NCBI GenBank assembly: GCA_003427395.1
Contig: BFEA01000001.1
Location: 2,677,190-2,724,422, forward strand
Origin: Chara braunii
Lineage: Eukaryota; Plantae; Charophyceae
DNA length: 47,233 bases
Reading direction: 5' to 3'
In this document: positions 1 through 47,169 of the stretch, in pieces
How positions within the stretch are numbered: the stretch's first letter is position 1
How the letters are laid out: each line of letters starts with the position of its first letter
Made by a program: the position numbers and the translations under genes
Notes under the pieces: generated by a model
Databases searched by the model: none
What the model was told of the DNA's origin: nothing
What the model saw: the letters and a program-made list of their open reading frames with translations, nothing else

Positions 1-1766
1 AGGCAGCAAGAAAGGCTATGGCGGCACCGCAGACTCAGGGAAAGGCGAAGAAGGCGGTGGTGCAAGAGGAGGAAGAAGAAGAAGAAGAAGAAGAAGAACC
101 CAAACCTCTAAAGTTAACAAAAACACAAAGGAAGGCCAAAAATCTGGGGCAAGGCGGACAAGGCTCAGGAAGATGACAGACTCCGCAGGCAACAGCACTG
201 CCTCCCCCGGAGTCGCATGGCCAGGCCGCGCCAACACCCTATGGGCCGTGGCCGGGTTATGGACCTCCCAGTCCTTGGCCTGGGCACTGTTCATACGTAC
301 CATGGCCGATGAGTGGACCACATGGATCATGCGCGGGAGCGCCGCTGAGCGCGGCTTCCTGCGGGTGTCCAGGACCCCAGACTCAACAAGTAAGCCACCC
401 GAGCCCCCAGCCAAGCCAACCTCAACAGCCGGCACCATAGGGGTCGCAGGGAATTCAAGACGGCGGACGCCGACAAAACCAAGGATGGGGCCGAGGGCGA
501 GGAAATGGCGGCCGGGGAAATGGAAGAGAAAATGGGGGTGACAATTCCAGTGGAAGAGGAAATGGGGGTGGCAATTCCAGTGGAAGAGGAAATGGGGGTG
601 ACAATTCCGGTGGAGGAGGAAATGGGGATTGGAATGCGTCTGGAAATCAGAATAGTCAGGACGGCGGGTGAGGTTTTGGTAGAGGACGGATAGACTTGAG
701 GAATGTCATTTGCTGGCATTGTGGGCAGAAGGGTCACACCATCAAGTTATGCCATGTCCGAAGGAACGATGAAGATGAAGGGCTGATTAGTACCAACTAC
801 GACGGTGACATGTATGATAAGTTTGGATACTACATTGACGTAGAGATCCCTGGTGGGTCGAGAAAGGAGGCCTTGAGACGAGTCGAGGCCGGCGAGCCGC
901 CCTCTCCTCTGGCCATGTTTCGAATCTGGCAAGAGGAGGATGTCCGTCCTGATGTAAGGGTTGAAGAGATAGGAGAGAATAAGGAAGTAAAGCAGGAAAG
1001 GAAAGCAGGTACGGTCAAGGAAGAACCTATTGTGGTAGAATCTGACGAGGAGATAGAAAGGGGTTACTGGAATGCGGCCCGGAGAACGATGGAAATAATG
1101 GAGGATCTAGTGGCAAAGATGAGAAGGTATCAAGACAAATTGACCAACATGTGTGAAGAGGTCAAGGAGTGGAAAGATAAAAAACCACTGGTATATCTCT
1201 ACGATATGGGTCCAAGACCGCAAGGAGGGTCTTGGAGCCTACCAGGCGTAACGATTTCGAGACCAACGCCTCGGTCCGGAATGGCTTATAGGCCACCATC
1301 AAGGTCAGGAGGAGCGCCACAGGCCGTCAGGACAAGGGCCAAGGGGCCGGTAAGCCCCAATGAGCCGGCAAAGGACGTTCCTGAGCCTAGTGGGGAAAAA
1401 GAGACAGTAGACATCCCACAGGATGAGGATGAGAGAGATGAGAGGTTAAGGAGAGAAGAGGGTAAGAGGACCGAGCTAAGAGCAAAGAAGAGGGATGTTA
1501 AGGCAGACGTGGAGAGAGTCCCGGAGGGGAAGAAAAGGAAGTATGTTGTCCGGGTAGAAGAAGACTATGATGTAGAGGAAATGATGGATAGAATCCTTGA
1601 GGGTCATAATCATCTTATGAATCTGAAGGATGTGTTGACTTCAGCTCCAAGGTTCCGGGACGAGCTTAAAACTCGATTATCCAGGAAGATGGTAGCCAGC
1701 GTGCGATTGAGGGCCATAATTCCCAAGGAAGCGGAATGGGCAGAGACAGGTACGAAGATGGATTGA
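1..1766 (+). pseudogene. gag: gag, 3' portion (poly-Glu, Pro/Gln-rich and Gly/Asn-rich segments, CX2CX4HX4C zinc knuckle)
   Basis: Frame 3 reads AARKAMAAPQ...CWHCGQKGHTIKLC, with in-frame stops at 174, 669 and 1764. Homologous to the minus-strand copy at 26008-27773. Confidence 0.85.
511..630 (+). repeat. 30-bp tandem repeat encoding GRGNGGDNSS-like units in gag
   Basis: ggaagaggaaatgggggtgacaattccagt repeated 3-4 times; inverted counterpart at ~27145-27265. Confidence 0.85.
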
Positions 1767-2525
1767 AAGTCCGTCGCATGTGGATGCTTGGACGTAGTAG
1801 TAAAAGGAAAAACGTGCACGGCAATGGTGGATACTGGGGCGGAAATGAACCTCATAAAAGAGGAGCATGCTTTGCATTTGGGGATGGGGATTGATCACTC
1901 CGATAATGGAGTTTTAATGGGAGCGAATAGTCGGTCTATGTTCATAGGGACCGCATCGAGAGTGGTTTTGGAGATTGGCAAGGTTAAATTGAGAAGCTGT
2001 TTCTTTGTAATGCTCGATCTCGATCATCCCATCCTATTGGGCCNATCTATCCTGAGCCGAACGGAGACCGTCATACNGAATAAGCATGATGGGACGATGT
2101 TCNTTGTCTTATGTGACCCGGTATGTGGCAACTATGAGGTTATTACATGTAGAAATACGAGGCCACAAAGTATAAGGAATAGGCCCAATCCTGGTTCTTT
2201 CACGATTGAGGAATCGGAAGAAGAAAGGAAGAGGCTAGGGGGAGATGAGTTTGAAAAAGAAANNAATCCGGAAGCACTGACTCTTAGCCTGACCAATATA
2301 GGCGATGCTATGGACATAGTGTNAACCTATGGGATGGCGGACCCGGAGGCCGTAGAGGCCTTGAGATAAAAGGTGATGGAACAAATNGGTGAAGGAGAGG
2401 TGGANCAGGTATATCGGACGCNCGGAAAGAGAGGAGGATCGGCAGGAGCCCAACCCCTGAGTGCAACTCGGCCTTTTTTAGGGGTGGGCTCGAGCAAGGG
2501 TCACAAAGGCGGTACAAAAGAGTAG
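1767..2525 (+). pseudogene. Retropepsin aspartic protease, in frame with gag
   Basis: AMVDTGAEMNLI and HPILLG motifs; same frame as gag. Internal TAA at 2367; zero-frame stop at 2523-2525. Confidence 0.9.
2474..2480 (+). promoter_or_regulatory. Candidate -1 ribosomal frameshift slippery heptamer T TTT TTA
   Basis: Phased X XXY YYZ in the gag-pro frame; the RT ORF is in the -1 frame. Conserved in copy B at 25294-25300. Confidence 0.75.
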
Positions 2526-4110
2526 ATCAAAAATGCCGCCCTGTTCCTGTGCTCGTGATTGAGGAACAAAAAATTTATTACGAGTGGGAACGAGAGTTGA
2601 TACGGCAGATGCGNGAAAATGTGGAGAATGGACCATNTCGTATCAATCAAGAAACGGAAGAGGCGCTGATAATAGGNGAACCAGATTTCCTTACAGCGCA
2701 GGAGAGGCANTTGATGGTANAGACCATGAGAGGAAGGCATACTGCCTATGCCTTCAATGATGACGAACGTGGCCGCCTGGATGTTGACAAGATTCCGATG
2801 ATTCGGATACATAACGTGCCACATGAACCATGAAATCTGCGAGGTGCGNGATACCCGAACCCGGNTGACGAAGAAAAANTGGTAAATTATCTTGACGGGA
2901 AGATCCGCACTCATGTCTCAGACTACTCGAGTGGACCATNTGCATCCCCTTGGTTTTGCTTTGTCAAACCAAATGGGACACTNAGATGGGTACAGGATTT
3001 GNAGCGCTTGAATGCTGTAACAGTNAGAGATGCNGGGGGTCTCCCTAANGCTGATGCGCTTTCAGAGGCATGCGCAGGAAGATCCATAATATCNCTCATA
3101 GACTTGTATTCTGGTTATGACCAGTTTCCTNTTTACCCTTCGGACAGACCAATGACTGCAATGCATACCCGTCNAGGGCTGATTCACATGAATGTCGCAC
3201 CGCAAGGGTGGACGAACGCGGTTGCCATGGTCCAGAGACACATGGTGAGGGCAATGCAACCAGTAAGTCATCACATTACACAACCTTACATCGACGATCT
3301 GGCTGTGAAAGGGCCAAACGAGAAGGATGAGAGGGAGGTGATGCCTGGGATTAAGCAATTTGTCTGGGATCATGTGCAAAATCTTTGTAAAGTCCTAGAC
3401 TTGCTAAAAGAGCATAACCTCACTGCAAGCGGAACAAAGTCCAGGCATTGTATGCGTGGAGCAACAATCTTTGGGTTTGTGGGCGACGAGAGGGGTCGTC
3501 GGCCAGACACTAAGAAAACGAACAAGATTCTCGAATGACCAACACCATTCGAGACAATGACAGAGGTAAGGAGCTTCCTGGGAACATGTGGGTTTTGGAG
3601 AGTGTTCATCAAAGGGTTTGCGGCAAAGACAGAGCAGTTGCGAAAGCTTGTGCGCCAAGGTCAGGATTGGGAATGGGGAGACAAGCAGGAGTCAGTAATA
3701 GAGGCTCTGAAGAAAGAGTTTGAGGAAGGGGGTCTGGTACTGGGGGTACCAGACCATGCGGCTGTGATGACCAGACCTTTTATCATAGAAACGGACGCAG
3801 GGCCGACTGCCCTGGGAGGAGTACTGATCCAGCGAGACCTCAATGGAGATTGAAAGTCGAACGCTTAACACAACTGAGAGGAATTACTCCCAGTTTAAGC
3901 GCGAGACCACTGCTTGAGGATTTTCAGAAACTACCTCTTTGGCAGCAGGTTTATGTTGAGGGTGGACCCAACGGCTCTAGCTGGTTCCCTTAAGAACTTC
4001 GCTCCTTCAGATCCAACCATTGCCAGGTGGTTGACGTACATCTAAACGTTTGACTTCGAATTTGAGCGTATTCCTGGGAACAAGAATAGGGCAGATGGGT
4101 TAAGTCGCGT
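2481..4110 (+). pseudogene. pol: Reverse transcriptase and RNase H
   Basis: ASPWFCFVKPNG, DLYSGYDQ, PQGWTN, QPYIDD, VRSFLG, FIIETDAG, ERNYSQ and NRADGLSR motifs. Stops, plus two short deletions (~3850, ~3908) relative to copy B. Confidence 0.93.
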
Positions 4111-4135
4111 CGACTGGGACAAGAGCAACAAAGGG

Positions 4136-5869
4136 GTGATTGAAGATACTCCGCTGGTCGACGGTTTCCTGGACAAGGAAGAGGACGTTAAACTCCACAT
4201 TAACTCCTGGTCATTGGCTATAGGTAACTATGTTACTCCTGGACGACCTGTATGGCTCGCACCTCCGGGTCATGTGCGGCGGCCGGATATAGTCCCCAAA
4301 CCTTATATTGAGGAAGATTCTTGGGGAATGCCTGAACTGGAGTGGATGATGGAGTTGGCCTTGGCGGATAAGTACCAGCTGCGGGAAGACTTGGTCACAT
4401 TGGAGACCGGACCCCAGCAGGTAGAAAAGGATGAACGATTGGTAGGTGGAATGTACGTGTTGGCAAACTCGTTGCTCCAAGAAGAGGTTGCTAGGATTGA
4501 AGAAGAGAGGCAAGATAGAGAGGAGAACGTGATTCATGAAGGAGAGGACGATGATTTTGAAGAAGGTGAGATAAAAGAGGCCTTTCGCGCAGAAGAATAC
4601 GACGGAGTATATCTGGAATTGGGAATGCTCCTGTCATGTGAAACAAGAGAAAGAGATGTTAACGAAANAGTCCTTAAGATGCGACCGAATTTTCTAGTGA
4701 GNGGCGGTCATCTATTCATGAGAAATAAAGGAAAGAATCCCAGAAGGGTAGTCTGTGGGATAAATCGACAGATTGACGTCATAGCTGCCCTTCATGATGG
4801 AACGANTGATGGCCATANNAGNACAGATGCAACATACTTAAAGNTTCACGAACTATATTATTGGGATAGCATGGGACACATGATCGANAAATATTGTAAA
4901 TCTTGCATACCATGTNAGGAGCNGTCTTCGCTAAGACCTANGGAACNGCTTCACCCTAGATATATATGTGAGGTCGGAGCAGTCGTTCATCTGGATCTAT
5001 TAGCGATGNCTCTGGGAATAGGAGGGTTTAACTATATCTTTGATGCACGAGACAATCTCTNAGGGTTTGTTGATGGCAAGGTTATTCGCACGAAGACTGG
5101 AGAGGTACTAGCTCGATGCATTGAAGAGTACTACCTTCGCTATCCTTTCGTCTNAAGGTTCGTAATNGACNGGGGGTCCGAATTCACCTGTGCCGAAGTG
5201 AAAGCGTTGCTGAAAGGGTATGGTGTGATCGCCGAGTATACGACTGCGGCGCACCCTCAGACTAATGCACCGGTAGAAAGANGGCACAGTACCATTACAA
5301 ATCTTCTCACAAAATGGACAGATGGCAGACCTAATCAGTGGCCANCTTTCCTGAGGGTTGCTTTCTTCGTGGANAATATCACTGTCAGAAGGAGTACCAA
5401 CTANGCGCCAGCTACATTATGGTATGGCAGACATGCGACGTTCCCTATAGAAAGTTTCCTAAAGACTTGGAGGCGACAAAACCTCAAGATAAACTTGTCT
5501 TTTGAGGACTTGCTTGATCTAAGGGCACGTCAAATTGGAGCCATAAAAGATAAGGTACAGGAAGCGGCAAGTAGGGTGGCTGACAGTCGAACCAAGGACA
5601 AGTTCAGGTGGGACCAGTTGGCACGAGTAAGGAAGGAACCTCTTAAGGTGGGAGACACCGTGCTACTGTACGACTCGTCCTTGGAGAAGCAATGGTCGAG
5701 GAAATTGGATAAGAGATGGTTAGGACCATACAGGGTCGCCAGGTGTGGAGAACATGGCGCATACCAAATCGAGGAGCTGAATGGGACCGCTTGGAAGGAC
5801 TGGGTGNCAGACTCGAGGTTGAAGAAGTTTGTCGCTCGAGACGAGGTGAGTCTGGACCTTACAAGCTAG
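4136..5869 (+). pseudogene. pol: Acidic linker plus integrase (HHCC, DDE core, GPY/SH3-like C-terminus; no chromodomain)
   Basis: LHDG..GH...CKSCIPC, HLDLL, DxGSEF, HPQTNAPVER and KLDKRWLGPYRV. Confidence 0.93.
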
Positions 5870-6079
5870 AGTCTCTTTCTCTTGTTAAGTATGTCTTTCT
5901 GATGGGGGTATCAGTACAGAAAGATTGTATGGACGTTCATTAGAATGATATGATGGGTTATGATAGTACGTATGTATGTGTAGGTATGTATGTGTATGCC
6001 TGTATAGGCGTCTAGGTTAGATGGGGGGGGATGTGTCTGTCTCTCACTGTGTGCCGAACCTGCTTACACTCTGTGTGCT

Positions 6080-6106
6080 TTGACTTGTCTCTTCCTTGTT
6101 GTGCAG
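6080..6106 (+). promoter_or_regulatory. Predicted 3' splice acceptor for the post-integrase ORF
   Basis: ttgac branch-like motif, pyrimidine tract and tgcag|G, 24 nt before ATG 6130. Conserved in copy B (~21638-21664, minus). Confidence 0.55.
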
Positions 6107-6129
6107 GCTTGACACCATTTGGCGAAGCC

Positions 6130-8495
6130 ATGCCAAGAGGGAGGGAGGGGCAAGGCCAGTGGAACCCCCTCAGGAGGCAGCCAGACAGAGAATGCAGGGA
6201 TGGACCAGGAAAGAGGACAGGCCACCCATCTTTTAGAGGAGGGAACGTGGAGTTGTTTTTTGTCGAGTTCGAGAAGCATGCCAACAAGTTCAGATGGGAT
6301 GGAGCCAGGATGCTGAGAAAGGTACGAGGAGGGGGCGAGTGGGCTGAGGCCATTGCCAGATATGTACGGGAGTCAGTGACCTGGCAGGAGTTCGAAAGGA
6401 AGATGGAAGGGATACATCCATCGCCTGTGGGGAGAGATGGAGTGCCAATCCGGTTCGATGGAACGAACCTGGATGAGTTCTTGTGGGCTTATGACCGGTT
6501 TGCAGACGAGCAGAACATTGCACCTAAGACCAAAGTGAGAGGGTTCCTCCAGTTCGTGAGGAGGCCTATCAGGATGTTCGTCAGGAACATTGTGGAAAGA
6601 GCGTTGCATTGGGGAGATTGCAGGCGGTTACTGAGGAGCTACTATACTCCCACACGCCAGACAGAGGAGAGAAGGAGTATGGAGAAGAAGAGGAAGGAGC
6701 CAGAGGTCACAGAGAGGAGGACTTTTGAGTCGGCATGACCTTAGGCACTCAAAGGGATGGACAGTGGAAAGAGCACAGGTCCCACAGGCAGGAGAGAGGA
6801 GAGGAGCAGCATGCTGAGAGGGTTCAAAGGAGAGAGGAACAACATGCTGACTGGACACAGCAGACAGAGAGGCAGGATGCATAAAGGACCCAGAGGGGAG
6901 GACCATCAGGTGGATCAGATGCGCCCCCTCAGCCTGCTCAGGGCTGCCCTATGGCAGACAAAGGGCCATAACTACCTCAAGAGCCACATGGACAGGAGCA
7001 GAGTGAGGACCAGGCTGCAAGGGAGAAGAAACAAGACAGAAAGGAGAGAGCAGCAATAGAGAGAGAGATCAGAGTAAAAATCAGACTCAAGAANATTGCG
7101 GAGCTGCACGAGAAGGTTGAGCAGGGAGAGCAGCCTGTGATACTAGAAGACAAAAAGGGGAATGGCTCACCCACTCAAGACGATGAGACTCCTCTTTTCA
7201 CGGAAGCGTGGGACAACTTTGATAAGTTGTTGGAGGCAGCAGGGAGGCCCAGGGAACAACATCAGGAGATGGGGGTTAAGATGGTCTCTACAGACTTTCT
7301 TAGCCTGAAGGGCCTTATGAAGGAGGGTTTTGCGGTGGCCAAGACTTCTGATGAAAAAATGGAGAAGAGGTTGACAAGGGTGGCGTGGGCGTCTCGTAAG
7401 CAGAGAATGGACTGGCAGAAAGAAATTGATGATCTCAAGAAGGAGTTGGAGAGGCAGAACAAGGAAGTGGATGCCGTGAAGATTGAGATGGAGAAGGCCT
7501 GGGCAGGCAACGAGGCCATCAGACAGGTCAACCAGACCCTCAACAAAGTCAACGACACCCTGAGGACCTACTTGCAGGTATAACAGAATATCTTTCAGGC
7601 AAAGGAAGCCAAGTGGGAGAAGAGGATAGAGGATCTTGAGGCCAAATGTGCACAACAGGTGCCTACTGCAGTGGTGGACTGGACCGAGGTTCAGGGGTTT
7701 GAAATCAGGAAGCAGCCTGCAGAGGAGGCCTTCAAGAGTCAGAAGGTGGAAGANAGGGCAAACGAGCAAAGGGGTGAGGAAATCCCTCTGCTGGATAAGA
7801 AGATGTTGGAGCCACAAGAGACACTAGCAGGAAGGGACTTAGAAGCAGGAGAGTTTGAGTGGAGGATGCCCACCGTCTTGGCACACGAGCAGGGACTAGT
7901 GAGGCCAGGGGTGAGGCCACCAACATAGGCCAACATGGATGAGGCTGCACCACCTACGATTCAGAGAGAAACTGTAGGGCAGCAGGAGGCTCAGGAGAGT
8001 GTGGGACAGGCCAAGGTTGAGGCTGAGGTAGGGGAGGATCTGGAGGTTTCTCAGAAAACCCCACCACCTCAGGATATGCCTCTGGTTGCAGGTCTGGAGG
8101 AGGCGCTGGGATCTCGGGCCACTGGATCCGGGGCAGAGGAGCGAGTGAGTGAGCNGGTGGCGCAGACAGATGACAGAGCAGCATGCCCCATTCCTCCTTA
8201 GCATCCACAGCAGGAGGTCACGAGCGAGGCTACAACAGTCCCCTCATCTGTGCCCTCCCAAGGAGCTGACAAGATGGAGCAGAAGAAGTTTGGAAGATGC
8301 TTCTACTGCAAGAAGGGCAAGCACCCACAAGAGACCTGTCCCAAAAGCCTCAAGGATGAGGCGAATGGCTTGTTTTCTTGGGATCCGTCTAGGGTACGTA
8401 GGGATAAGTATGGGAACCTGATCCTAAAGACTCGTGATGGGATATGGGCGCAGTTGTATAAGCAGTTGCAGGAGGACATGAGTGATCAGGGATAG
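6130..8495 (+). pseudogene. Extra ORF in the env position encoding a second Gag-like protein (two capsid N-lobe-like repeats, coiled coil, C-terminal CCHC knuckle)
   Basis: FRGGNVELFFVEFEKHA and FDGTNLDEFLWAYDRFA repeats, a heptad-rich segment at ~7350-7640, and CFYCKKGKHPQETC..DEANGL..DKYG aligning with the gag knuckle region. Interrupted by stops and frameshifts. Confidence 0.75.
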
Positions 8496-10227: not shown

Positions 10228-12010
10228 CNATCAAGCTACTACCTGGGAGCGGGCATTACACTGTAGTACGGAACAAAGTATCCCCAGAGTCCGAGGCCAA
10301 GACGTGGGAGACCCAGGTTGAAACCCTGGCAGTGGAACACCGTGACGGGGGTAGATTGATGGAATGCCTCGAACGGAGTCAAGCCGACTAATCGGATTGG
10401 TTACTTCCTCGTCAGCAGATGTGATTTTGTTGAATTTAAAATTTTGATTGTCCGACGCGACGGGGGCGTCGCTTAATAGGGTCCGGAAAACTGTCGGCAC
10501 CAATACCCTTACAAGGGTAATTGTGCATGTTTTGTGCACCTCACAGAAAAGGCGACTAAGATGATATTTGAAAGAGTGGCGTGTGTTTCGTCCAGCCGCA
10601 ACTAACTCCTTGAAGACGGAAGTGGCAGACGCATGCATAATTTGATTAGAGAGTGTGTGAGCATGCACGTTGTGGACATGTGTGAGTTCAGTCAAATAGC
10701 TATTTAGCATAAACAACTAACCACCGCCAGTCTAGGATAGAAGTAAGTTGGAAACTCGGACAAGGCTGAGTAGGCCGCAACCTCGCGCCCGCTGACAAAG
10801 TCACAGTCAACGCAGAGTTGGTCAATGGGTCTACGACTAGAAGAAAGTTTTCGTTGACTCACTGAAAGACGGGATTTTAAAGACCGCATGGTAAGGAGTG
10901 CGTAAACACTAAGCTCAACTGTATACGAGCAGGGGTCGGAGCCGTCGGAGGAGTGAGAGGGAAAATGATGCGAACTGGGTTAGTAGGGACAAAAGTCGGG
11001 GTTCTCCGGCAAAGCGGCGACAAAAGGGTTGGTCGCGGCAGGCTATGAGAGCCTCGGGCCGCGACCGCGGCATGAAGGGGCGACGCGCGTGGTAGGCCGA
11101 GCAACGCTTACCCTTGAGGCAGCAGAACGCGACATTTCAAAGCCAGGGGTTCTGGGAATAAGCCAAGTGGTGGCCTTGGCATACCCTTGCAGGCCTGGGC
11201 AGGATGCAGTTACTCTTCATATAGAGAACTGAGCCTGTTGCCTCCAGGCTTGGGCTTAGCCCTATAGGTTACGTCACTGAGTTGTCACCAGGAGGATCCC
11301 AAGGTTGAGTCCAGCAGCATGCAGCGGAGCGGTGGAGGAGCGCTATGGAGTGAACCAAGGGGTTGAGGGTCCCGCGGGACTATCCCCCTTGGTTTTGTTG
11401 GGAAGTCCAGCAGCGGGCCCGCGAGGTAGGACCAAGTGCCAACGGTCCCCTCCCCGATCCGTTTTCCTAGCTATTATTTTAAAATTTTACTTATTTTATT
11501 TTATTTACTTATTTATTTATTTATTTTCTCTCTCGTTCCCGAAGAGTTCTTGCGCACGGTCTGTGAGTGGCACCGTGTGACCAGCAAAGTACCGATCCGC
11601 CATTGCTGCAGACAGGCGAGGCCTTGTCCCCTTTGAGAAGGTACGGTAGTGTGGTCTAAACCATGCCCGAAAACCTCAAGTTCGGCCTATTCCAAATCTG
11701 CGTTTTTCGTAGGTCTGGAGTCGCAGTGTGAGCGTTCNCGGTGGGACTAACAAGATGGTGAACTGTGACGGGGCCATGCGGTGCCACANGGAGTGTCAGC
11801 AGGGGCCTGCAGCNATACCGCTGCCAACCATAGACCTAGGTATAGGGCGGAAGGCTAGCCAGACCGCCAAGTAGCAGGTTCTCTCAGTAGGTCTCCCTCG
11901 GGGTAGCTGGAGCTGTGGAGCTGTCTTACTGAACAACAGTGAGGCCAAACCCGGGCAGGAGGGGGACTGTGGTGACTTCTGCATCTAGTACCAGGATTGG
12001 CCAGGCAAAG

Positions 12011-12588
12011 AACCNGCTGNCCCCGCTCAGTTGGTACACCCATGAACTGTTGAAAATACAGATTCGAGTCTGAAGTTCAACTGAGGCAAATAAACAGCAT
12101 GCTATGGTTCTGGGTTANNCGGGACCAGCCAGGGCCGTGGGGGTGTCCCAGTGCCACGCCCATGGGCCAGTCCTTCGGGACAACTGTTAAAATTGGAACG
12201 GTACAGAGAAGGTCGGCATAGCCCCTTGCGTTTGGTTCTGCAACCGGTTAAGGAACCAATNTGCCCAACTCAGTTGGTACTNCCTTCAAGTTGAACTGCA
12301 GACCTGAGTCGAACTGCACTAGTAGCAGATGAGTAAAGAACTGCAATGCTGAATTACCTAGGCTCAGTGCCAGTTCCAGGACTGCTGTTGGGGCCAATGA
12401 GCCTAGCTCATTTGGCACATCTCTGAATTGTTGAAATACAGACCTGAGTTCGAACTCTGCTAAAAGCAGATGAGCAAAAATGCTACGTCTTAAATTACCN
12501 AGGACCGGTCAACCCGGTACCAATATTTTGGGGCAGTGGCCCTGCATTAGTCCCCGGNACATCCGTTAAAATTGGAANGATATAAAAA
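12011..12588. repeat. Three degenerate ~110-bp units within the LTR, followed by a poly(A) tract
   Basis: Related units (ctcagttggtac...tacagacctgagt..gaact) at ~12011, ~12252 and ~12391; gttaaaattggaa at ~12186 and ~12565. Mirrored at ~35665-36240. Confidence 0.6.
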
Positions 12589-14504
12589 NAAAAAAAAAGT
12601 ATGCTCCGCTGTGTGTAATGCCCCGATCAGCCTCTGGGGAGGCATTAAAAAGGCGGGCGTACGGGCGTCGAGGCAGCTGATTGCTTCCCCTTCTCACTTC
12701 AGCCAGTGTGGGACCGTGCGCNNTCGGCCTNTGTAGCGCTCAAGGAAGGGGGGCGAAGGAGGTAAGCTGGGAGAAGAAGAGAACGAAGTCAGAGATGGCG
12801 GGCAGAGGAAGGAGTGAGGGAGAAAAAAGCAGATCTCACCCGTTTCTTAACGGAAACGGGCGAGTGAGGACTCGATTTTGAGTTTTTAGGGCACTGCGAT
12901 TAAGATGGTGAAGTTAGTTTGGGCGTTGGGATAGTAGGATAGGAGTTATAGCAGAAGAAGGTTCGCCAAGGTGTTGAGGAGAGGAGAAAAGATAAAAGGA
13001 AAAAATATCTTTAAGGCTCGTTGCTGAACGGAAACAAACAAGGGGAGGACTCAGTTTGGGGGTTTCAAGGGATGGCGAATCCGGCTGTGAGCTCGGATTT
13101 CGAGCTTAATGAGAAGATTTGGCGCTGCAAGCAATAAGAGCTGCGCCCAGCAGTGAAGGTCGTACTACGAGGATATGCAATGTATCTCCCCGCGGTTTAG
13201 GGGAAGATTCATTCTCATTTTAAGTATTTGGTGAGCAATGGAGTGGGGCGTTTTCCTCCTCAAATGCGCTGTTGTTCGCGGGTGTTTTCTCCTCATGGTG
13301 GTCAACTGGTGATCACAATNTGTTTGGTGTCCTCCACCTTCACTCGTGGTTCCTATGGCTGCCTCGTGATCTTNGCCTCCATTAGATCGTGGTACTCGCT
13401 TTTGTCCAAACTCGCCGCGGTCATCTTCATCGGGCTATCATCATCATCTCACTCATAATGCTGGTCTTTTGTTGCGTTCGTCACGACAATCATGCTCGCC
13501 ATTCCGGTCTGATTGCAGATGATCGTCGTGCCCTATGGTCGTAGCTATCGGCAGAATTCGCCCGTGAATGTGACCAGGTACCGACTACGGGAAGAATGTG
13601 GTGAAGGTAGGACAAAGGAAGGGGTAAGTACTTACCTATAGAATTGCGGTGCGGGTGAACTAAGGGTCGAGCTACAGGCAAAAACACGAGAGTGAAAGGG
13701 AAGCAGCGTATATTTTCATGTCTGGTGGAAAATTCCTTCCGAATTCTGCCAGTCTATCTGAAGGAGCAGCGGCGGAATAAGTGGGAGAAGTGGAGGTAGT
13801 AAGTGCGGGAACAGCGAGAGTGACAACAACCAGGCAGCCGCCGTGTGCAGTCCGACTTCGGCTGTTTATTTAGAGGAGAACAGTGTTGCAGCTCGTCGTG
13901 ACCGTCAATCTGCTCGATCTGCGGAGGAGGGAAGCAGCGAAGAGCTCGTAGGAGCCTTGTTGGGAGGAGGGAGTTTGCATCCCCCTCAAATTCATCGCTT
14001 GACCATCATTGCCGCTCCGCGGACGCAGATGGAGAAGAGGCAGCAGGACTAGCATCGGCCGGGGCACAATGTTTTCACCTGCACCGGCGGGAGTTCAAGA
14101 ATGGTGCTCCTCCGTTCTGGACGATTCCTGCTGCTGCTTGTGGCGGGAGCTGGGGTTGTGCTTTCTTGGAATCTTCGACGGGAGGTGACAGCGAGAACCA
14201 GGACGGGGAGAGAGAGAGAGAGGAGGAACGGGCACCTACCTTGAAGAGATGGTGGTGAGGGATGAATCGAAAGACGGTATCAAACTGCACAGCAACGTAT
14301 ATTTTTCTATCCTAGTGAAAGATACGCTCTCTTACTCTATTGATAAGCGATGAAGGAGAGCTCATCGCCTTGTTTATCACTCCCTCCAGGATGCGAGGCG
14401 CTGTTCCTCCCCTTGCTCCTAGCCTCGGTCGTCCTTGTAGGTATAGTGCCCAATTACCTGTAGCAAGGGCCTGCCTATCATCGCGACTACATAGTGCTCG
14501 TCGT

Positions 14505-14684
14505 NNNNNNNNNNNNNNNNNNNNNNNNNNNNNNNNNNNNNNNNNNNNNNNNNNNNNNNNNNNNNNNNNNNNNNNNNNNNNNNNNNNNNNNNNNNNNNNN
14601 NNNNNNNNNNNNNNNNNNNNNNNNNNNNNNNNNNNNNNNNNNNNNNNNNNNNNNNNNNNNNNNNNNNNNNNNNNNNNNNNNNNN
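14505..14684. other. Assembly gap (180 N)
   Basis: Run of N. Confidence 0.99.
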
Positions 14685-16555
14685 GCCTCTCGGTCGAGAT
14701 ACCAACCTCTGTGGCTTCAGATGAACCTGGCCGCATGAACGACCAGGTGCATCCATGAATTTAGCAGGAGAGAGAGGGGAGTAGGATGTTTACCTTGGGA
14801 AGCTTGNGCAGAAAGAGGANTCGGGAGTCAANCTAAGGTGCNAAACTGTGCACAGATCTGGATNGTGAGTTGGGGGTGCATCTAGCCGCGTTCTAGTGGA
14901 GGGGTCATCTNTTTTTTTGTATGTCGCAAGNAGGGAGTGCNGCGGGAAATTGNATACGTCAGTCTGGNANGACTCATCAGTGCTCCAGCTGTTGTTGAGG
15001 GGTTCGTGCTATCCATAGCCACGGGCCATATCTGCAGACTCCGGGTTCAGGGTCATATCCTTAAATGTTGTGTTGTTGCTGTGGGCTGATCTACTGTGCA
15101 AACGAGATGCTGCTGCAGCTGCTGTAATCTGGAGGTTCGGTGCGTTGTTGGTTGTTTGTTTCCCGGACCAGTGTTGCAGCGGTTACGGTTGACCCTCCGC
15201 TACTGCTCGGACGGAGTGCTGCTGCGTTTCTGAGACTCAACCATACTTCCAATTACTATGCAGCTGATGTATCTCACGTCAACTGCGTGTTTAAATGTTA
15301 CTAATCATTGACATTACGGAGCACCTTTACTGAGCGTTATCCTGCTCTGTTGACCGGGTCGTGTGCGCAGCTGGTTTTATTGCGCTTGTTGTGCATCATT
15401 GGGGAGTGTCATTTTACTAGCCTACTGTAAGGATTGTTGCTGTTCTCAAGTGGGCGGCTGTTACAACCGGTGTTTTGCTCAAGAGGAGGTCACTAGTGCA
15501 TCATGGAGGCCTGATGCGGGACTGCTGCTTTTAAAGACTGCTGCTGCTGTTGTGGGCCGCTCCCTTGATGAGTACTCGACAGCAGCTGCGCAGACAGGGT
15601 TGCGGCCGTGGTCCTAGTGAGGCCGTATTTCCTGCACTACCATCCTTGCCGCCAAACACCATTGCGGAGGCTTGGCGGCAGCGGACTGTTGTGTAACAGC
15701 TGACTTGCGAGAGGTGCTGCGCCGGCCGCTGTGTTTACTGTTGTGCGCGACTGCGGTGCTTGCGACGCTTGCCGAGCTTCCACGGTGTATGGAGGTGACC
15801 TTACTGCGCCTTTGCGGCGCTGCTGCGGTACGGTCTGGCTAAACACAATCTGCGCATGGTCGTGAACTTGGAAGAGTGAGACAACGCAGCGTAGGGCTAT
15901 TGTCGTGACTTGGAGGCCAGTCTCTGCATTCAGGCCAAGGCTCGGCTACTTCTGCTGCGCTTCGTTGACCATCATTAGAAGCCGTTGGGGGACTATTACT
16001 TTGAATTTGGTCACGATCGGACCATCACGACTGCGTTATTTTGGCCAGCATTGCGGGGCCCTCAGGAGATTGAAGATTACAAGGCCCTCTCCCGCGAGTC
16101 TGAGAGCACCCCTCTTGTATCTCAGAGTCTAAACATTTCTCCTTCTATTTTTCTTACTCTAAGTCTCGTCTATTGGTGACGAGAGGAAGGCGGCAGGCGG
16201 GATTGAAACCCGTAATCCGCGCCAAGGCCTCAGTGGGAGGTTCACCCCATCGATTGCGGGAGCTCTGCCGGAGCCCACGCGGGGTTCTGGAGGCAGGGAA
16301 CACTCAGGTATAACTTTCGTCTGACGCGTGTGATCCTTTCCCCTAAACTATTATTCCTTTGGGCTATCTGAGAACATAACTATGTGAGGTTATTACTTCT
16401 TAACTTTGTTATGTATGTTAGGACATGCTCTGCGAAAGGTTAAATAAACACTTATATGTGTGAAAAGTCAGATACTTTGAGCAAATTCAGACATAATGAA
16501 TTGGGGGAAGGCGGAAGGAAGATGTTATGCATGCGTTTGACTGGGTCGACCCAAG

Positions 16556-17805
16556 GCTGAGCCCCTCCGGGTGGATGTGGGCTCAGTGTTGTGTTTTATT
16601 AAGGTTTCCTGATCTGAATGAGTGGCTCTTATGGCTGGTCTACCCGGGTGGGATATGAGTCGCTGTTTTATTTGAGGGTTTTTGAACAGGAGGATGGGCA
16701 CCCCGGGTGGGGAAGGCTAAGAATCCTTGTGTTTATTTTAATGAGTTCTGGTGCGTGTTTTCTTCTGAGGGAGTAACGACATAAGACTAAGCGTACCCTA
16801 GGGTTAGGACGGCTTAGCCATGAGCCATGAGCTAAATGGTCAACCAGAGTATAAAACTTGATATATATACAATTTGAACTTTTACTTCTGATATACCGGG
16901 CGCCCCGGGTGGGGAAAGCCAGTCAGTAACTCAGGTAGAACTAAGAAAGAGGGAAAGAGATGAAGAGTAAAAAAAAGGTAACTGGCAGACTGAACGTACC
17001 CTAGGGTTAGGGCGGTTCAGTTATATGCTCATGATAACACTAAGGAGCAGAGAGTTAGTATAAATTTGATTTTATTTTCCCTTCTAAACATGAGGCAGGA
17101 TCGGAAGTTCCATTTATTGGAAAGGTCCGATCGACTGCTTAATAAGAGAAGGAAAAACATAAAGTCTTTGAAAGTATTTGTACCCTATTTTCTGTTGTAC
17201 GGCTAACTAGGCGTACCCTAGGGTTAGGGCGGCCTAGCGATAAGCTTTTGTCGTTTAAAGTAAGTTAGACGTACCCTAGGGTTAGGGCGGTCCAGCGTTT
17301 CGGTGTTTATAACTGTTCAGGCAGATCAGACACACCCTAGGGTTAGGGCAACCTGATCACATTGCCTTGTGTAACTTAAACTGTTGTGGCTAGTTAGGCG
17401 TACCCTAGGGTTAGGGCGGCCTAGTGATATGCGTTTGTCGTTAATGTGTTGTGGGTTGGACGTACCCTAGGGCTAGGGCGGTCCAGCTTGTTGTTGTTTG
17501 TACCCGTGTTCAGGCAAGCTAGACCTACCCCTGGGTAGGGATGGTCTAGAATGATGTCGTATGTAACTTTGTTTAAAGCGGATTGGGCACACCCTAGGGT
17601 TAGGGCAACCCGGTTCTATGCTATTTGTGGTCAGTTATGCAGAAGTCAGACGTACCCTAGGGTTAAGGCGGTCTGGTCATATGCCTTATGTGTACAGTTC
17701 ATGTTATGTTGGGAATACCCTAGGGTTAGGGCAGTAAAATATCCGTACTTTACTTGTGTACCTAGGCAGGTCAGGCATACCCTAGGGTTAGGGCCTTGTC
17801 TGACC
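16556..17805 (+). repeat. Array of 16 GGGT-loop stem-loops (core GTACCCTA-GGGT-TAGGGCG) with variable but self-complementary arms
   Basis: Loops start at 16569, 16646, 16705, 16801, 16907, 17004, 17221, 17279, 17340, 17408, 17470 (GGGC), 17533, 17597, 17660, 17723 and 17785. Confidence 0.9.
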
Positions 17806-20784
17806 ATATGCCATAGGAAAGGGGGATGTAAAAGGGAAGGAACTAAGCGATTTAACGAACTACTTGGACTAAATTAATGTGGGATTGTGAGAGATGTTTT
17901 GGTTATGCATGCTTGTGGGCTCTCACTCTGGGGCATCTCTTTGATAGTTTAGTTGCTTTAGGTGCTCGCCGAGTGCTAGAGCTATAGGCAGGTAGGATGG
18001 ATGATGGGAGGAAAAGCTTGGGATAAGATAGGACTGGCTCTACTAGGAGTTAGGATCAGTGTCATCACACAGCCTCATCAAGAGGTCGTACAGATTATCG
18101 TTGATCCTACCTTCCAAGTAAGTGTCAGAAGTTAGTCCCAAGTATAGTTATGCCTTGTTTTTTAAGTTTCAGCCTTGTATAAATCTTGGCAACCTCCTTT
18201 TCCTACGGGAAGCGCTGCCGAAATTTCTATAAATTTGAAAAAGTTAGTTATTTTTGAACTCTTCGAAATTCTGGAAAGGCACTTTTCCTACGGAAAGCGC
18301 TGCCGAAATTTCACAAAATTTAGGGAGTTATTTTATTATTAGCTAAGAGAGACTTGACAAATCCACCCTGGATAGGGGAGATGCTGCCAAATTTTCTCAG
18401 TAAATTAGCGTTAGTGAGGGAAGCTGAAAGTGAGACTGATAGAGGAGCTAGGGTACGAATTGGGGAACTATCCTCTACTTGGGTTGAACATAGTAGTGGT
18501 TCTCTTTGACCTATACTGTGATGCAAGTTTTCACATCCGGTTGAAGACTCGAATTGTTCGGCCTGATTCTACGAAGGGATCACTTGTCTGTTATCACTGA
18601 TAACAGGTCGGTTGCTGATTCGTCGGTTTACAACTCAGCTTTCCTATTCTCTCCTGCCTCTCAACCTAAGGCCTTGGCCCTTGCCAGGTTTTGTGTGCTT
18701 CTTTGAGTTTTCACCCAGTTTCTTTATAAATGACCATTTCTTCAAGACTGAGTGTATTTGTTGAGGGGAAATGGTTGGGCTTGTGTGCGTAAGGCAGAGT
18801 GTGAGCTGCAGAACGCTGAAAAGTTGACTCCTTTAGTGCGTGTGATGTTGTTTGAATGTCGAATGTTTGCGNGTATGTATGAGAGAGACTCGATTCAATA
18901 TGTGATTGAGTAATTATGTTTTGAATTCAGATGGGCAAACCACACAACTGTCGTGAGAGTGTACTGCCCCACAACCTGTTGTTTGGGTGNGATTGTTNTT
19001 TTCCCAGCCGGATGATGTGATAATCAGAGTNAGNGTACGCTNGAGTAATCCTTATGGGGCTATGCGACCGCGCGCTTGCGTCCTTCTATTCTCTTTGACT
19101 TCGTGTGGTAGGGCATTTGTCCCAAGTCTGGAAACCAAGATCCTTGTCCGGGACGTCCCAGGCCCTAGACTAACATTGAAGGTATTTTCTTCCGATAGCG
19201 TTAAGAGGATTTATTTTTCATCCTTGTTGAGGTTATTTTGGTGGAACGATAAAGTTCCGAGCGGAAGGATTAGCGTGTCGCTGGTGATGCGCCAGACAAC
19301 TCACCACCGCTCCGAATTCCTTCCTGCCCTAGGGACCATCTTACCCCGCACCCCTTGGGGCACCTCAGGGTGCAGAAGATGGTAAGGCTCTCAGGCCGGT
19401 CTTGCGCTTGCTAAAGGTTTACCCCCCCTTAGCGGCACTTCAGCCGAGGCCTCAGCAGCGAGAGCAACCCCATGGCTCAAAAGAGGCCATTCGGGTATGG
19501 GCGTCACATAATGCGCCGACATCACGATTGCTTACGCAAACCCGCATCGTTGGTCGGTATGCGTAGGTTCTGCCTCCGCGCGGATTTATGCTAACCCATG
19601 CACGCAATACTTGCCTATTGCTGCGCTCGAAGGTTATGATACGAGCAAAGAGGGCAAAAGCGCGTCACGATGAGTAAACCCAAGTTTCGGCAGCGTGAAA
19701 CGACACAGGTAGCAGGGAATAAGCCTAGTCGGCCTAAGGGGACCCGTGTACTAGCCTCCAAAAGTCTCAAACATCGGGTTGCCCGTGGGTCTGAGTCTGG
19801 GCTTCATCCGCACGCATCTTTCGCGTTGGCCTACCCCTCGTTTTTGGAACTACTATCAGACTATCTGCAGTTGTTTCCTCCTTAAAGTCTTCGTGCTTGG
19901 ACGTTGTAGTCCGTGGCAGCCGTCAAAGTCAAACCCCTTGATGTTTGACCGCCACGACAGCTTAAAGCCGTCTACTCAACCCCTCTGCACAGGGTGCAGA
20001 AGAGGGTGTGGTCTTCAACCGCACATGGCGGTTGTCTGGCGTTGAGAGATTACCCCTCAAAGCGCCTGTCAGCCGACACTTGAGTGTCGAACGCGACCCT
20101 CGAAATTATCAAGGGCCGCGAGGCTACGAGTACCACATAGTACCCCATCAACGCAAATGCTTGCGAATGCCCGCATGGCTGGTGGATATGAGGAGGCCAT
20201 GCACGCGCATGACTCTTATACGAAAGTCCAGCGCGCGGTACCTACCTGATTCTCGCGGTATAAAGTTATGGGTTGGATACTGAAGGGACTAGGAGTGTTG
20301 TAATGTTGTGTTTGTTTTGTGTTTTTCCATGTGTTATGTATGGGTAGATGTGAGTGTTGTGGTGTAACGCATGGTGTGTGCGATGCGTCCTGGTCTACCG
20401 GCGCTGAGTCACGTTTGGGACCTCAGCCCCCCAGTACGTCAATTCGCGTGCGGGTTCGATTTCTTGGGCGTTCGACCGCGCGTAACCCCCTATGCTACAG
20501 CGAACGAGAAACGCCCTCGGCTGGGCCACCTCTGCAATTGCATACGAGAAGCTTTCGCATGTGGTTCAGTAGCTCGGCGAAGATTTGCCCACCTAAGGGA
20601 TGGTGACAACTCCCGCAGATGGAGGTAAGCGGTGCCTCGCGTGACCCTGTCCTGTTGTAGGGGCTCGCGAGAGGTACGGCTGGCGCACTCGGCCGGAGCG
20701 GCCAAAACGCTCTGCGACAAAGTCCTGCGAAATCCTGCGTGACGCGGCCGGGAGGGTCCCCATGCGGGACCGATGCGCTGAACA

Positions 20785-21233
20785 GGTGGCGCCGTTGCCG
20801 GGGATTTCGGCTGCCTAACGGGGTCCATAGTGAACGAACCCAGGTTAAGAGCAGGCTGATGATCCAGGCAAAACGACAATCTTTGATGGAAAGATTTTTC
20901 TCCCTTTGATTGACGATGATACGAGTATTGTGGCATTCTTGATGGCATGTCATATCTATTTTTGATTCTAAGTAAGGTTGAAAGTATGCATTGTGTATAT
21001 GTCCGTTTTTAGCAATATAATCAGAAAAGATAATATAGAGACCTGATAGGCTACTTTAAGTGAAATAAAGATAGTAGTAGAATAATGAAAGTAAGCGAGT
21101 GAGAGATTTGACGGCCGATTGTTTTTGTTAAAACTGTTCATTCCTTAACAGGTTTTTGAGAAAGCGTAAAGATGGGGGACGCTGATGGAATCGAGCGGGG
21201 CCCGGGTGCTACACCTGAGGACTTCATCAAGGC
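20785..21233 (+). mobile_element. Stub of a tandem copy C: PBS, 5' leader and first 20 gag codons (MGDADGIERGPGATPEDFIKA), truncated at an inversion junction
   Basis: Matches the reverse complement of 28420-28868. ATG at 21172 is preceded by acceptor-like ttccttaacag|G at 21151. Confidence 0.85.
20787..20805 (+). promoter_or_regulatory. Primer binding site complementary to the tRNA-Asp 3' end (Athila-type)
   Basis: TGGCGCCGTTGCCGGGGAT, 2 nt after the terminal CA. Confidence 0.93.
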
Positions 21234-21614
21234 TTGTCTGCAAACCGGTCATAAGCCCACAAGAACTCATCCAGGGTCGTTCCATCGAACCGGATTGGCA
21301 CTCCATCTCTCCCCACAGGCGATGGATGTATCCCTTCCATCTTCCTTTCGAACTCCTGCCAGGTCACTGACTCCCGTACATATCTGGCGATGGCCTCAGC
21401 CCACTCGCCCTCTCCTCGTACCTNTCTCAGCATCCTGGCTCCATCCCATCTGAACCTGTTGGCATGCTTCTCGAAGTGGACAAAAAACAACTCCACGTTC
21501 CCTCCTCTGAAAGATGGGTGGCCTGTCCTCTTTCCTGGTTCATCCCTGCATTCTCTATCTGGCTGCCCCCTGAGGGGGCTCCACTGGCCCTGCCCCTCCC
21601 TTCCCTCTTGGCAT
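21232..21614 (-). pseudogene. Truncated second Gag-like ORF of copy B
   Basis: Same protein as 6130-6511; 1-bp insertion after the ATG; cut at the junction. Confidence 0.75.
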
Positions 21615-25300: not shown

Positions 25301-28300
25301 GGTCGAGTTGGACTCAGGGGTTGGGCTCCTGCCGATCCTCCTCTCTTTCCGGGCGTCCGATATACCTGTTCCACCTCTCCTTCACCCATTTGTTCCATCA
25401 CCTTTTATCTCAAGGCCTCTACGGCCTCCGGGTCCGCCATCCCATAGGTTGACACTATGTCCATAGCATCGCCTATATTGGTCAGGCTAAGAGTCAGTGC
25501 TTCCGGATTTCTTTCTTTTTCAAACTCATCTCCCCCTAGCCTCTTCCTTTCTTCTTCCGATTCCTCAATCGTGAAAGAATCAGGATTGGGCCTATTCCTT
25601 ATACTTTGTGGCCCCGTATTTCTACATGTGATAACCTCATAGTTGCCACATACCGGGTCACATAAGACAAAGAACATCGTCCCATCATGCTTATTCTGTA
25701 TGACGGTCTCCGTTCGGCTCAGGATAGATTGGCCCAATAGGATGGGATGATCGAGATCGAGCATTACAAAGAAACAGCTTCTCACTTTAACCTTGCCAAT
25801 CTCCAAAACCACTCTCGATGCGGTCCCTATGAACATAGACCGACTATTCGCTCCCATTAAAACTCCATTATCGGAGTGATCAATACCCATCCCCAAACGC
25901 AAAGCATGCTCCTCTTTTATGAGGTTCATTTCCGCCCCAGTATCCACCATTGNNGTNCACGTTTTTCCTTTTACTACTANGTCCAAGCATCCACATGCGA
26001 CGGACTTTCAATCCATCTTCGTGCCTGTCTCTGCCCATTCCGCTTCCTTGGGAATTATGGCCCTCAATCGCACGCTGGCTACCATCTTCCTGGATAATCG
26101 AGTTTTAAGCTCGTCCCGGAACCTTGGAGCTGAAGCCAACACATCCTTCAGATTCATAAGATGATTATGACCCTCAAGGATTCTATCCATCATTTCCTCT
26201 ACATCATAGTCTTCTTCTACCCGGACAACATACTTCATTTTCTTCCCCTCCGGGACTCTCTCCACGTCTGCCTTAACATCCCTCTTCTTTGCTCTTAGCT
26301 CGGTCCTCTTACCCTCTTCTCTCCTTAACCTCTCATCTCTCTCATCCTCATCCTGTGGGATGTCTACTGTCTCTTTTTCCCCACTAGGCTCAGGAACGTC
26401 CTTTGCCGGCTCATTGGGCCTTACCGGCCCCTTGGCCCTTGTCCTGACGGCCTGTGGCGCTCCTCCTGACCGTGATGGTGGCCTATAAGCCATTCCGGAC
26501 TGAGGCGTTGGTCCCGAAATCGTTACGCCTGGTAGGCTCCCAGATCCTCCTTGCGGTCCTGGACCCATATCGTAGAGATATACCAGTGGTTTTTTATCTT
26601 TCCACTCCTTGACCTCTTCACACATGTTGGTCAATTTGTCTTGATACCGTCTCATCTTTGCCACTAGATCCTCCATTATTTCCATCAATCTCCGGGCCTC
26701 AGTCCAGTAACCCCTTTCTATCTCCTCGTCAGATTCTACCACAATAGGTTCTTCCTTGACCGTACCTGCTTTCCTTTCCTGCTTTACTTCCTCATTCTCT
26801 CCTATCTCTTCAACCCTTACATCAGGACGGACATCCTCCTCTTGCCAGATTCGAAACATGGCCAGAGGAGCGGGCGGCTCGCCGGCCTCGACTCGTCTCA
26901 AGGCCTCCTTTCTCGACCCACCAGGGATCTCTACGTCAATGTAGTATCCAAACTTATCTTACATGTCACCGTCGTAGTTGGTACTAATCAGCCCTTCATC
27001 TTCATCGTTCCTTCGGACATGGCATAACTTGATGGTGTGACCCTTCTGCCCACAATGCCAGCAAATGACATTCCTCAAGTCTATCCGTCCTCTACCAAAA
27101 CCTCACCCGCCGTCCTGGCTATTCTGATTTCCAGACGCATTCCAATCCCCATTTCTTCCTCCACCGGAATTGTCAGCCCCATTTTCTCTTCCACTGGAAT
27201 TGTCACCCCCATTTCCTCTTCCACTGGAATTGCCACCCCCATTTTCTCTTCCATTTCCCCGGCCGCCATTTCCTTGCCCTTGGCCCCATCCTTGGTTTTG
27301 TCGACGTCCGCCGTCTTGAATTCCCTGCGACCCCTGTGGTGCCGGCTGTTGAGGTTGGCTTGGCTGGGGGCTCGGGTGACTTACTTGTTGAATCTGGGGT
27401 CCTGGACACCCGCAGAAAGCCGCGCTCAGCGGCGCTCCCGCGCATGATCCATGTGGTCCACTCATCGGCCATGGTACGTATGAACAGTGCCCAGGCCAAG
27501 GACTGGGAGGTCCATAACCCGGCCACGGCCCATAGGGTGTTGGCGCGGCCTGGCCATGCGACTCCGGGGGAGGCAGTGCTGTTGCCTGCGGAGTCTGTCA
27601 TCTTCCTGAGCCTTGTCCGCCTTGCCCCAGATTTTTGGCCTTCCTTTGTGTTTTTGTTAACTTTAGAGGTTTGGGTTCTTCTTCTTCTTCTTCTTCTTCT
27701 TCCTCCTCTTGCACCACCGCCTTCTTCGCCTTTCCCTGAGTCTGCGGTGCCGCCATAGCCTTTCTTGCTGCCTTCGCCTCTTTTTCCGCATCGAGTTGGN
27801 CAACAGCATCCTCTACCATTCTCTTAAAATCTCTCCCGTCACTTGTCGTGGCATCCAAAGCCTTCCTTTTCTTCCTGGCCTGCCTCATCTGAAAGATGTC
27901 TACCTGGTCCAATTCTCCCTCTTTCACACCCTCTTTTATGGCGGCCCAAGTCAGTTTCTTTCCTGGCTCAGCCTTCTTGGTTAGCGACGAGGCTTCCCAA
28001 TTCTTGAAGTGCCCCAGGAAAGTGACACACTGTTCTTCTTCCGCCAACCCAGGGACTTTCTTTGCCATTTTCTCAAATGTCGTGGCAAAGGCCCCCACCG
28101 TTGAGAACTCGTCCCGTCTCAACATTTCCAAGTCTTCTTCGGTGAGCAGGTCGTCACCTAACTTGAAACGTCTCTGCATCTTCTCTTTAAACTTTGCCCA
28201 CTCACCATTCGCGCCGGCCGCTACTTTCATTCCCGTCTCTGCATCTTCTCTTTAAGTTCCCACCATACGTACCTAGGCATCAGCTTGGATTTGTCTGCTT

Positions 28301-28481
28301 CTGACGCCTCGCTAGTGACCTGCTCCAACAACTCAAGCCACTCGGACACTCTATCCCCGTTGAAGTGAAAAATGTTGACCTTGGGCACCTGAAGCCGTGC
28401 CATCTCTCTTTTTTCCAATGCCTTGATGAAGTCCTCAGGTGTAGCACCCGGGCCCCGCTCGATTCCATCAGCGTCCCCCAT
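25249..28481 (-). pseudogene. gag: gag-protease of copy B (full length, disrupted)
   Basis: ATG 28481; capsid-like FNGDRVSEWLELLE...WAKFKEKMQRRF...STVGAFATTFEKMA; CCHC knuckle; VDTGAE. Several stops and a frameshift at ~28230. Confidence 0.88.
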
Positions 28482-42385: not shown

Positions 42386-42461
42386 GTCTGGCGTGTTTTT
42401 TGCAGCCTTATATATCGTTGTTATGCATTACATTCATACTGCAAGTATCATCGTCGAAGAA

Positions 42462-47062: not shown

Positions 47063-47169
47063 TTGATTAAAGGTCGGTGCATGACCTTAACATATGTGGC
47101 TCACAACGTGTGCGTGTGTGTGTAGTACGAGTTAAGAGCAAAAGAGCAAAATTATTTATTATGACACAC

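Follow-up and report, generated by a model that had tools for sequence, protein, structure and literature searches.

A gag paralogue after pol in a giant Ty3/Gypsy element of Chara braunii is predicted to carry two capsid N-lobes and no C-lobe

Extra open reading frames in the env slot are common in plant LTR elements, and their origin and function are mostly unknown according to the cited parts of two reviews (PMC7264820, PMC11728184). A 47,233-nt stretch of contig BFEA01000001.1 of Chara braunii (hereafter the window) contains such a gene, ORF3, raising the questions of where it came from and what it could do for its host element. The window contains two inverted copies, approximately 96-98% identical, of one LTR element, which belongs to Ty3/Gypsy as evidenced by the PR-RT-RH-IN order in pol, the LTRs on both sides and a primer binding site (PBS). 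Copy 1 (+) runs from a partial gag through PR, RT, RH and IN to 5869, followed by ORF3, roughly 2 kb without coding sequence and then an LTR. Downstream of this LTR lie the PBS and a leader, then 62 nt that belong to another gag, and then copy 2, joined at 21232/21233. Copy 2 (–) comprises an 8.9-kb LTR as well as gag and pol, with ORF3 represented by its first 383 nt. The features of the host element are as follows.

711..836, + strand: zinc knuckle plus tail of copy 1's own Gag
1767..5869, + strand: pol of copy 1 (protease, RT, RNase H, integrase), broken
10492..20784, + strand: LTR after copy 1, bounded by TG...CA; length 10.3 kb with an N gap counted in, identity to the copy 2 LTR 96%
20787..20804, + strand: primer binding site
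21232..21614, – strand: first part of ORF3 in inverted copy 2, truncated by the 21232/21233 junction
26008..28481, – strand: gag of copy 2, with N-lobe, C-lobe and knuckle, broken
28869..37766, – strand: 5' LTR of copy 2, 8.9 kb

The PBS at 20787..20804 is putatively of the tRNA-Asp type, the type that Athila elements have. A Pfam search of the integrase frame gave no chromodomain, and no clear polypurine tract was found at 10440-10491, before the 3' LTR, where a short GC-rich inverted repeat lies instead. Both gag and pol of the window copies are broken, like ORF3. A frame change between protease and RT occurs at a matching place in both copies (2370-2393, + and 25381-25405, –), representing either a shared defect or a programmed shift. 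At 21232/21233 a gag start (+) meets the inverted, truncated ORF3 (–); this junction of a shared-LTR tandem with an inversion is due either to an assembly artefact or to rearrangement. At 39600-47100 lie further broken frames that are not related to the LTR element; they look like those of a DNA transposon and include a protease-like frame.

By arithmetic over both copies, the internal region spans 11.6 kb and the whole element 29-32 kb, and its genomic RNA (LTR of 8.9 kb plus internal region) is at least 20.5 kb long, in agreement with the RNA of more than 20 kb proposed in the initial annotation. The LTRs themselves, of 10.3 kb (10492-20784, +) and 8.9 kb (28869-37766, –), exceed the lengths quoted for plant giants, which reach about 5 kb in the cited account (PMC6317226). 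Both LTRs contain a 5' fragment of U6 snRNA (12170-12226, + and 36022-36078, –; E 1.7e-6 over model positions 1-62, with a score under the gathering cutoff), and a second, shorter U6-like stretch lies near 12550-12590, approximately 380 nt downstream of the first. Within the LTR and near the U6 fragment on the minus strand, 36374-36501 gave a weak match to eukaryotic LSU rRNA (positions 820-950, E 0.035). A hairpin array is also present in each LTR (16783-17797, + and 31827-32639, –), with at least 11 units at a spacing of about 62 nt, each a CCCTA/TAGGG stem with a 4-nt loop containing telomere-like TTAGGG; the array region folds no better than shuffled sequences (z -1.19), and no link was found between it and the ORF3 protein, which the initial annotation had suggested might read the array.

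Between the end of pol and the non-coding DNA of copy 1, the following features were assigned to ORF3.

6130..8495, + strand: ORF3, gag paralogue after pol, about 790 codons, broken in copy 1
6235..6432, + strand: unit 1, four predicted helices, N-lobe-like through homology to unit 2 and language-model neighbours
6448..6654, + strand: unit 2, predicted capsid N-lobe fold of the Arc/Ty3 type
6685..6696, + strand: KKRK downstream of unit 2, NLS-like; a basic cluster occurs in 15 of 16 models
7350..7643, + strand: predicted coiled coil, a charged helical stretch with heptad bias
8298..8423, + strand: CCHC zinc knuckle plus tail, paralogous to that of Gag (CCHC intact in 11 of 15 models)

In copy 1 ORF3 is not an open frame, having at least seven breaks, among them a compensated shifted stretch at about 6140-6233, a frameshift near 6730 and stops in the C-terminal frame at 6882, 6969, 7581, 7926 and 8199. 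These breaks are read through without interruption in related gene models, so the intact ORF3 is one frame of about 790 codons. Its domain order parallels that of Gag, with lobes, KKRK, a helical part, a low-complexity part and a knuckle, and Gag too carries KKRK after its capsid. The N-terminal arm of ORF3 is rich in Arg and Gly. In the predicted coiled coil, 61% of the a/d positions are hydrophobic in the best register, compared to 14-50% in the other six, and the stretch gave weak matches to coiled-coil Pfam families. Pfam gave no match for the N-terminal part of ORF3 and placed the knuckle below threshold. No membrane helix was found: the highest Kyte-Doolittle 19-mer value in the window ORF3 is 0.69, and none of 58 related ORF3 models reaches 1.6.

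One link to Gag lies at the C-terminus. The knuckle peptides of ORF3 and Gag align without gaps, with 13 of 42 residues identical, and over the 28 columns past the last Cys, with the register fixed by the CCHC motif, the similarity has a p of about 1e-5 against shuffles. In deeper, cleaned alignments, profile comparison of knuckle plus tail gave a probability of 85% (E 6.5e-6), and the tails alone gave 81% (E 1.3e-5), equalled by none of 100 shuffles. In distant families the ORF3 tail is still closer in look to the Gag tail. No similarity between ORF3 and gag is left at the DNA level. Thus far the analysis agrees with the initial annotation, which had placed another Gag-like gene at the env position and described a coiled coil, a paralogous knuckle in ungapped alignment to Gag and no transmembrane segment; the gene lies after pol and is homologous to Gag in the knuckle and, as described below, in unit 2.

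That annotation had also read the N-terminus as two tandem FxGxN...W units forming a duplicated capsid lobe, with no counterpart of the Gag C-lobe. Comparison of profiles (62 rows) revealed that units 1 and 2 are homologous over 61 columns (95%, E 3e-8, none of 100 shuffles); in shallow alignments of 11-14 rows the same comparison was not significant or only marginal. Unit 2 matches the Gag N-lobe end to end over 65 columns (58%, E 1e-4, none of 100 shuffles), carries the start and end motifs of an N-lobe and shares approximately 17% identity with the N-lobe of its own Gag. Unit 1 is only weakly similar to that N-lobe (3.7%, 12 columns). Against the Gag C-lobe both units stayed below 1% in profile comparison (0.5% for unit 2), and after unit 2 there is only charged sequence.

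AlphaFold2 modelling from 11 aligned rows yielded eight helices, grouped into two sets of nearly equal spacing; pLDDT was 82-91 in unit 2 and 55-66 in unit 1, and only one of the five models exceeded 52 overall. The unit 2 model superimposes on the N-lobe of Drosophila dArc1 with Z 10.1 and an rmsd of 1.6 Å over 73 residues. The six best-ranked structures are all N-lobes (Z 7.4-10.1), with Arc and copia at ranks 2-6, compared to Z 5.9-7.2 for C-lobes (best 7.2), a modest preference for a modelled small helical bundle. Foldseek placed dArc1, Ty1, Ty3 and Arc at the top for the lobe model, none reaching E 0.001, and BFVD gave no match at E 0.001. In phmmer searches unit 2 matched dArc2 (E 0.007); another match, to the designed protein 7UEK, was judged to be due to chance. 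When unit 1 was folded alone (pLDDT 63), no capsid appeared among its Foldseek or VIA matches. Its nearest named Atlas clusters, which serve as a lead only, are DUF7041 (0.94), Retrotrans_gag, DUF4939 and Ty3_capsid, and its ten best Atlas hits all come from one family or clan. We therefore keep the two tandem units and the lack of a C-lobe counterpart from the earlier description, and its expectation of a capsid fold is borne out by prediction for unit 2; of the duplicated capsid lobe, the homology of the units and the fold of unit 2 stand, and unit 1 lacks a structural capsid match. Taken together, the domain is predicted to be an N-lobe plus an N-lobe, of which unit 1 is the more diverged, and the C-lobe is predicted to be missing from ORF3.

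To place ORF3 among its relatives, machine-predicted gene models on decayed copies were used. Named relatives are mostly Chara braunii proteins (11 of 12, 27 of 28, and 8 of 10 distant ones looked up), and no relatives outside Chara were found. Searches of metagenome and viral contigs gave no loci for ORF3; for RT they gave one weak 1.4-kb locus in metagenome contigs and none in viral contigs. Among 34 close models (P0001 left out), ORF3 parts lie after gag/pol, save for two weak low-complexity cross-matches, and 26 of the 34 contain at least 60% of a core domain. A representative search returned 90 proteins, of which 80 distant ones were examined: gag/pol lies upstream of the lobes in 62, also or only downstream in 4, and in neither place in 16. 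Two of these 16, the unnamed P0093 and P0101, which is named as an ant protein, are repeat proteins of non-element nature with scattered matches and were dropped. Identity of the distant families to the host element is approximately 47% in the Gag capsid, 73% in RT, 63% in IN and 35% in the lobes. With ORF3 kept after pol across such divergence, the gene is older than the split of these families. As a sense ORF after pol, it also has the position by which env-like ORFs are recognised.

Lobe identity tracks that of the Gag N-lobe (rho 0.79, 17 models), the C-lobe (0.76, 20 models) and IN (0.56, 15 models), with Mantel p ≤0.001; this co-divergence appears only with the distant families and is weak in the 34 close models (rho 0.05-0.45). 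Mean identity among close models is 0.65-0.71 for the lobes, compared to 0.74-0.80 for the Gag capsid, so that ORF3 evolves faster than Gag, which fits a role in regulation or conflict as well as a structural one. Selection was assessed from genomic contigs of one sample, in which 40 of 67 variants at 6200-6680 entered the test and the expectation was given by the same changes at random sites. In the ORF3 frame 25 of the 40 are synonymous, compared to 11.6 expected, a count that none of 200,000 simulations reached; the other two frames gave 5 and 8, no variant makes a stop in the ORF3 frame, and the crude pN/pS is 0.24. Between the two window copies, the start of ORF3 differs at 14 sites, 5 of them synonymous, as expected after insertion. 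Neutral evolution and a separate nested element, two of the three outcomes that had been named as fatal to the proposal of a second Gag-like gene, are thus contradicted by the synonymous excess, and by the position after pol (62 of 80) and the co-divergence with gag, respectively. ORF3 is real and old, and is kept under purifying selection across deeply split families; very probably, it is a functional gag paralogue lacking the C-lobe.

How ORF3 is expressed was considered from sequence signals and RNA reads. The predicted signals are as follows.

6082..6106, + strand: putative 3' splice site with pyrimidine tract and CAG, the strongest among 27 candidate sites in 1-8500; the ORF3 ATG follows 23 nt downstream
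20622..20630, + strand: best 5' splice-site-like motif GAG|GTAAGC (prediction), about 160 nt before the PBS; at 29028 on the – strand in copy 2

The stretch from the pol stop to the predicted acceptor ahead of ORF3 contains 14 ATGs, and together with this acceptor and the donor motif in the LTR they make a spliced, env-style mRNA likely, which would use a donor near the LTR end and the acceptor at 6106. The same short peptide precedes the ORF3 Met in 6 of 12 gene models. An acceptor-like site also lies just before the gag ATG (21130-21151, + and 28502, –); as judged from sequence, splicing from the LTR donor to it would strip the PBS from a gag-pol mRNA. From three poly(A) read runs, sampled at 6-13% of each, 50, 1719 and 69 reads fell at 19043-22339 on both strands, mostly in the LTR. 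RNA depth at the ORF3 acceptor is under about 2, and no splice joint is listed among those thin reads.

What, then, might the product do? We tentatively favour a minor particle protein. A spliced mRNA would yield a small amount of Gag-like ORF3 protein, whose tandem N-lobes would dock on the N-lobe rings of a normal Gag shell, and whose coiled coil and zinc knuckle would hold the genomic RNA of more than 20 kb, thereby helping assembly and not blocking it. In the cited account of retroelement capsids, rings are formed by N-lobes and bound together by C-lobe contacts (PMC11684626), so that a protein with two N-lobes should not close a shell alone. The same source describes RTL8, which has only an N-lobe, as binding the N-lobe of PEG10 and entering PEG10 particles (PMC11684626). 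In Ty3, a pair of N-lobes is described as the repeating unit, and 540 subunits pack two RNAs of 5.2 kb (PMC6525542); an RNA dimer of the host element would be about four times the content of the Ty3 shell. The particle role is favoured because numerous successful families retain all 790 codons of the gene, and keeping both gene and knuckle across many amplified families would fit a benefit to the element. Counting against it by analogy, the closest analogues that have been tested, RTL8 and Ty1 p22, inhibit particle formation; furthermore, unit 1, which is modelled at low confidence, matched no capsid and barely resembles the N-lobe of the element's own Gag, and no Foldseek hit of the lobes reached E 0.001.

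A related and more doubtful reading is a two-protein capsid of Gag plus its spliced paralogue, in which the covalent N-lobe pair would replace two neighbouring N-lobes, loosen or enlarge the lattice and anchor a genome of 2 x 20 kb. If true, this would be a retroelement that overcame the limit of capsid size by duplicating gag.

Unlikely, in our view, is a self-encoded restriction factor, whose N-lobes would enter the Gag lattice while the missing C-lobe blocks closure, limiting copy number, although such a role has better bench precedent than the particle role favoured above. RTL8 cuts the yield of PEG10 particles, as described in the cited passages (PMC11684626), and Ty1 p22, made from a subgenomic RNA, blocks assembly (PMC8458377); ORF3 likewise has no C-lobe match and evolves faster than Gag. 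However, ORF3 is kept across many amplified, deeply split families and has about 600 further residues, with coiled coil and knuckle, which a plain blocker would not need. In addition, p22 is described as identical to its Gag by overlap (PMC4599808), unlike unit 2 with its low identity to the Gag N-lobe.

It is equally improbable that ORF3 is a nuclear RNA adaptor resembling Rev or CERV, with a knuckle that would bind unspliced RNA and with lobes and coiled coil that would oligomerise for export or protection. The widespread basic cluster and the Arg/Gly-rich N-arm are consistent with this role, and CERV is reported to be produced by Cer1 from a spliced mRNA for such a job (PMC10309623). Motifs resembling splice sites lie on both sides of the PBS and ahead of gag as well as ORF3, which suggests that unspliced RNA would need export. 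However, the basic cluster is also present in Gag and may simply have been inherited, and export needs no capsid fold kept twice.

Quite improbable is a complete second Gag, in which unit 2 would act as the C-lobe and ORF3 would build shells of its own, perhaps as the captured gag of a related element and not as an in-place duplication. Its two lobes, basic cluster and knuckle are collinear with Gag; N- and C-lobes are described as sharing one fold (PMC6525542), in keeping with the C-lobe Z scores of 5.9-7.2 against unit 2; shallow tests showed a likeness between the two Gag lobes of the host element; and unit 1 is not close to the N-lobe of that Gag. Against this, unit 2 has N-lobe motifs, matches the N-lobe far better than the C-lobe in profiles (58% versus 0.5%) and ranked N-lobes first in structural comparison. 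Finally, a neutral relic or nested insertion without function, to which the seven or more breaks in copy 1 and the 5 of 14 synonymous differences between window copies might point, is largely refuted and most improbable given the synonymous excess, the fixed place after pol in distant families, the co-divergence with gag and the equally broken gag and pol of the same copies.

A literature search over titles and abstract openings, with the Chara genome paper outside it, did not turn up any account of this Chara family or of a second gag located downstream of pol. The nearest counterparts by position are the 3' sense ORFs of plant Ty3/Gypsy and SIRE elements (env-like aORF-3S or eORF-3'F, as in Athila and Bagy2), which share position and strand with ORF3 and are kept in most copies, and of which the extra ORF of Bagy2 is spliced (PMC7264820, PMC6317226). 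In the cited passages plant env-like ORFs are described as membrane-type or as of unknown origin and unlike other TE genes (PMC7264820); ORF3, in contrast, has no membrane helix and is a gag paralogue. It is thus unusual among the extra 3' ORFs of LTR elements in being a remodelled gag, with an origin that can be traced to a duplicated or captured gag in which the C-lobe was lost and the N-lobe doubled. Selection has kept it in deeply split families of an LTR element that ranks among the largest recorded. In size, the host element falls in the same class, at about 29-32 kb and with extra coding capacity, as Ogre (16-25 kb, LTRs of 1.9-6.5 kb) and Burro (more than 30 kb), with its LTRs of 8.9-10.3 kb lying above the Ogre range; a second gag is not named for either element in the cited part of that source (PMC6431247).

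In its fold, unit 2 is predicted to resemble the N-lobes of Drosophila Arc1/Arc2 and the Ty3 capsid. These proteins differ in combining an N-lobe with a C-lobe and forming closed shells, whereas ORF3 is predicted to be an N-lobe plus an N-lobe. ORF3 offers a direct test of how retroelement shells pack genomes several times the size of Ty3. Among Gag-derived second proteins, Ty1 p22/p18 and Drt2 control copy number in yeast, and p22 is encoded by the element and made from subgenomic RNA, as described in the cited source (PMC8458377). p22 is read from the gag ORF itself, of which it makes up the C-terminal half, unlike ORF3, a separate and diverged gene with N-lobes in a Ty3/Gypsy element, which also allows a test of whether elements beyond yeast Ty1 carry Gag-derived regulators of their own. 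CERV of C. elegans Cer1 is likewise an accessory protein that an LTR element makes by way of a spliced mRNA (PMC10309623), splicing being predicted for ORF3; it is called a novel protein in the cited text and not a Gag copy (PMC10309623), a description that sets it apart from ORF3. A further likeness, in domain content, is to RTL8, the PEG10 antagonist of the mammalian Mart family, which has an N-lobe without a C-lobe, as predicted for ORF3, and binds its partner Gag at less than 30% identity (PMC11684626). RTL8, however, is a host gene that arose by domestication, has a single lobe and lacks a knuckle, whereas ORF3 has two lobes, a coiled coil and a knuckle. In the cited passages, capsid proteins with only N-lobes are host-domesticated, as RTL8 is, whereas ORF3 sits in the element itself.
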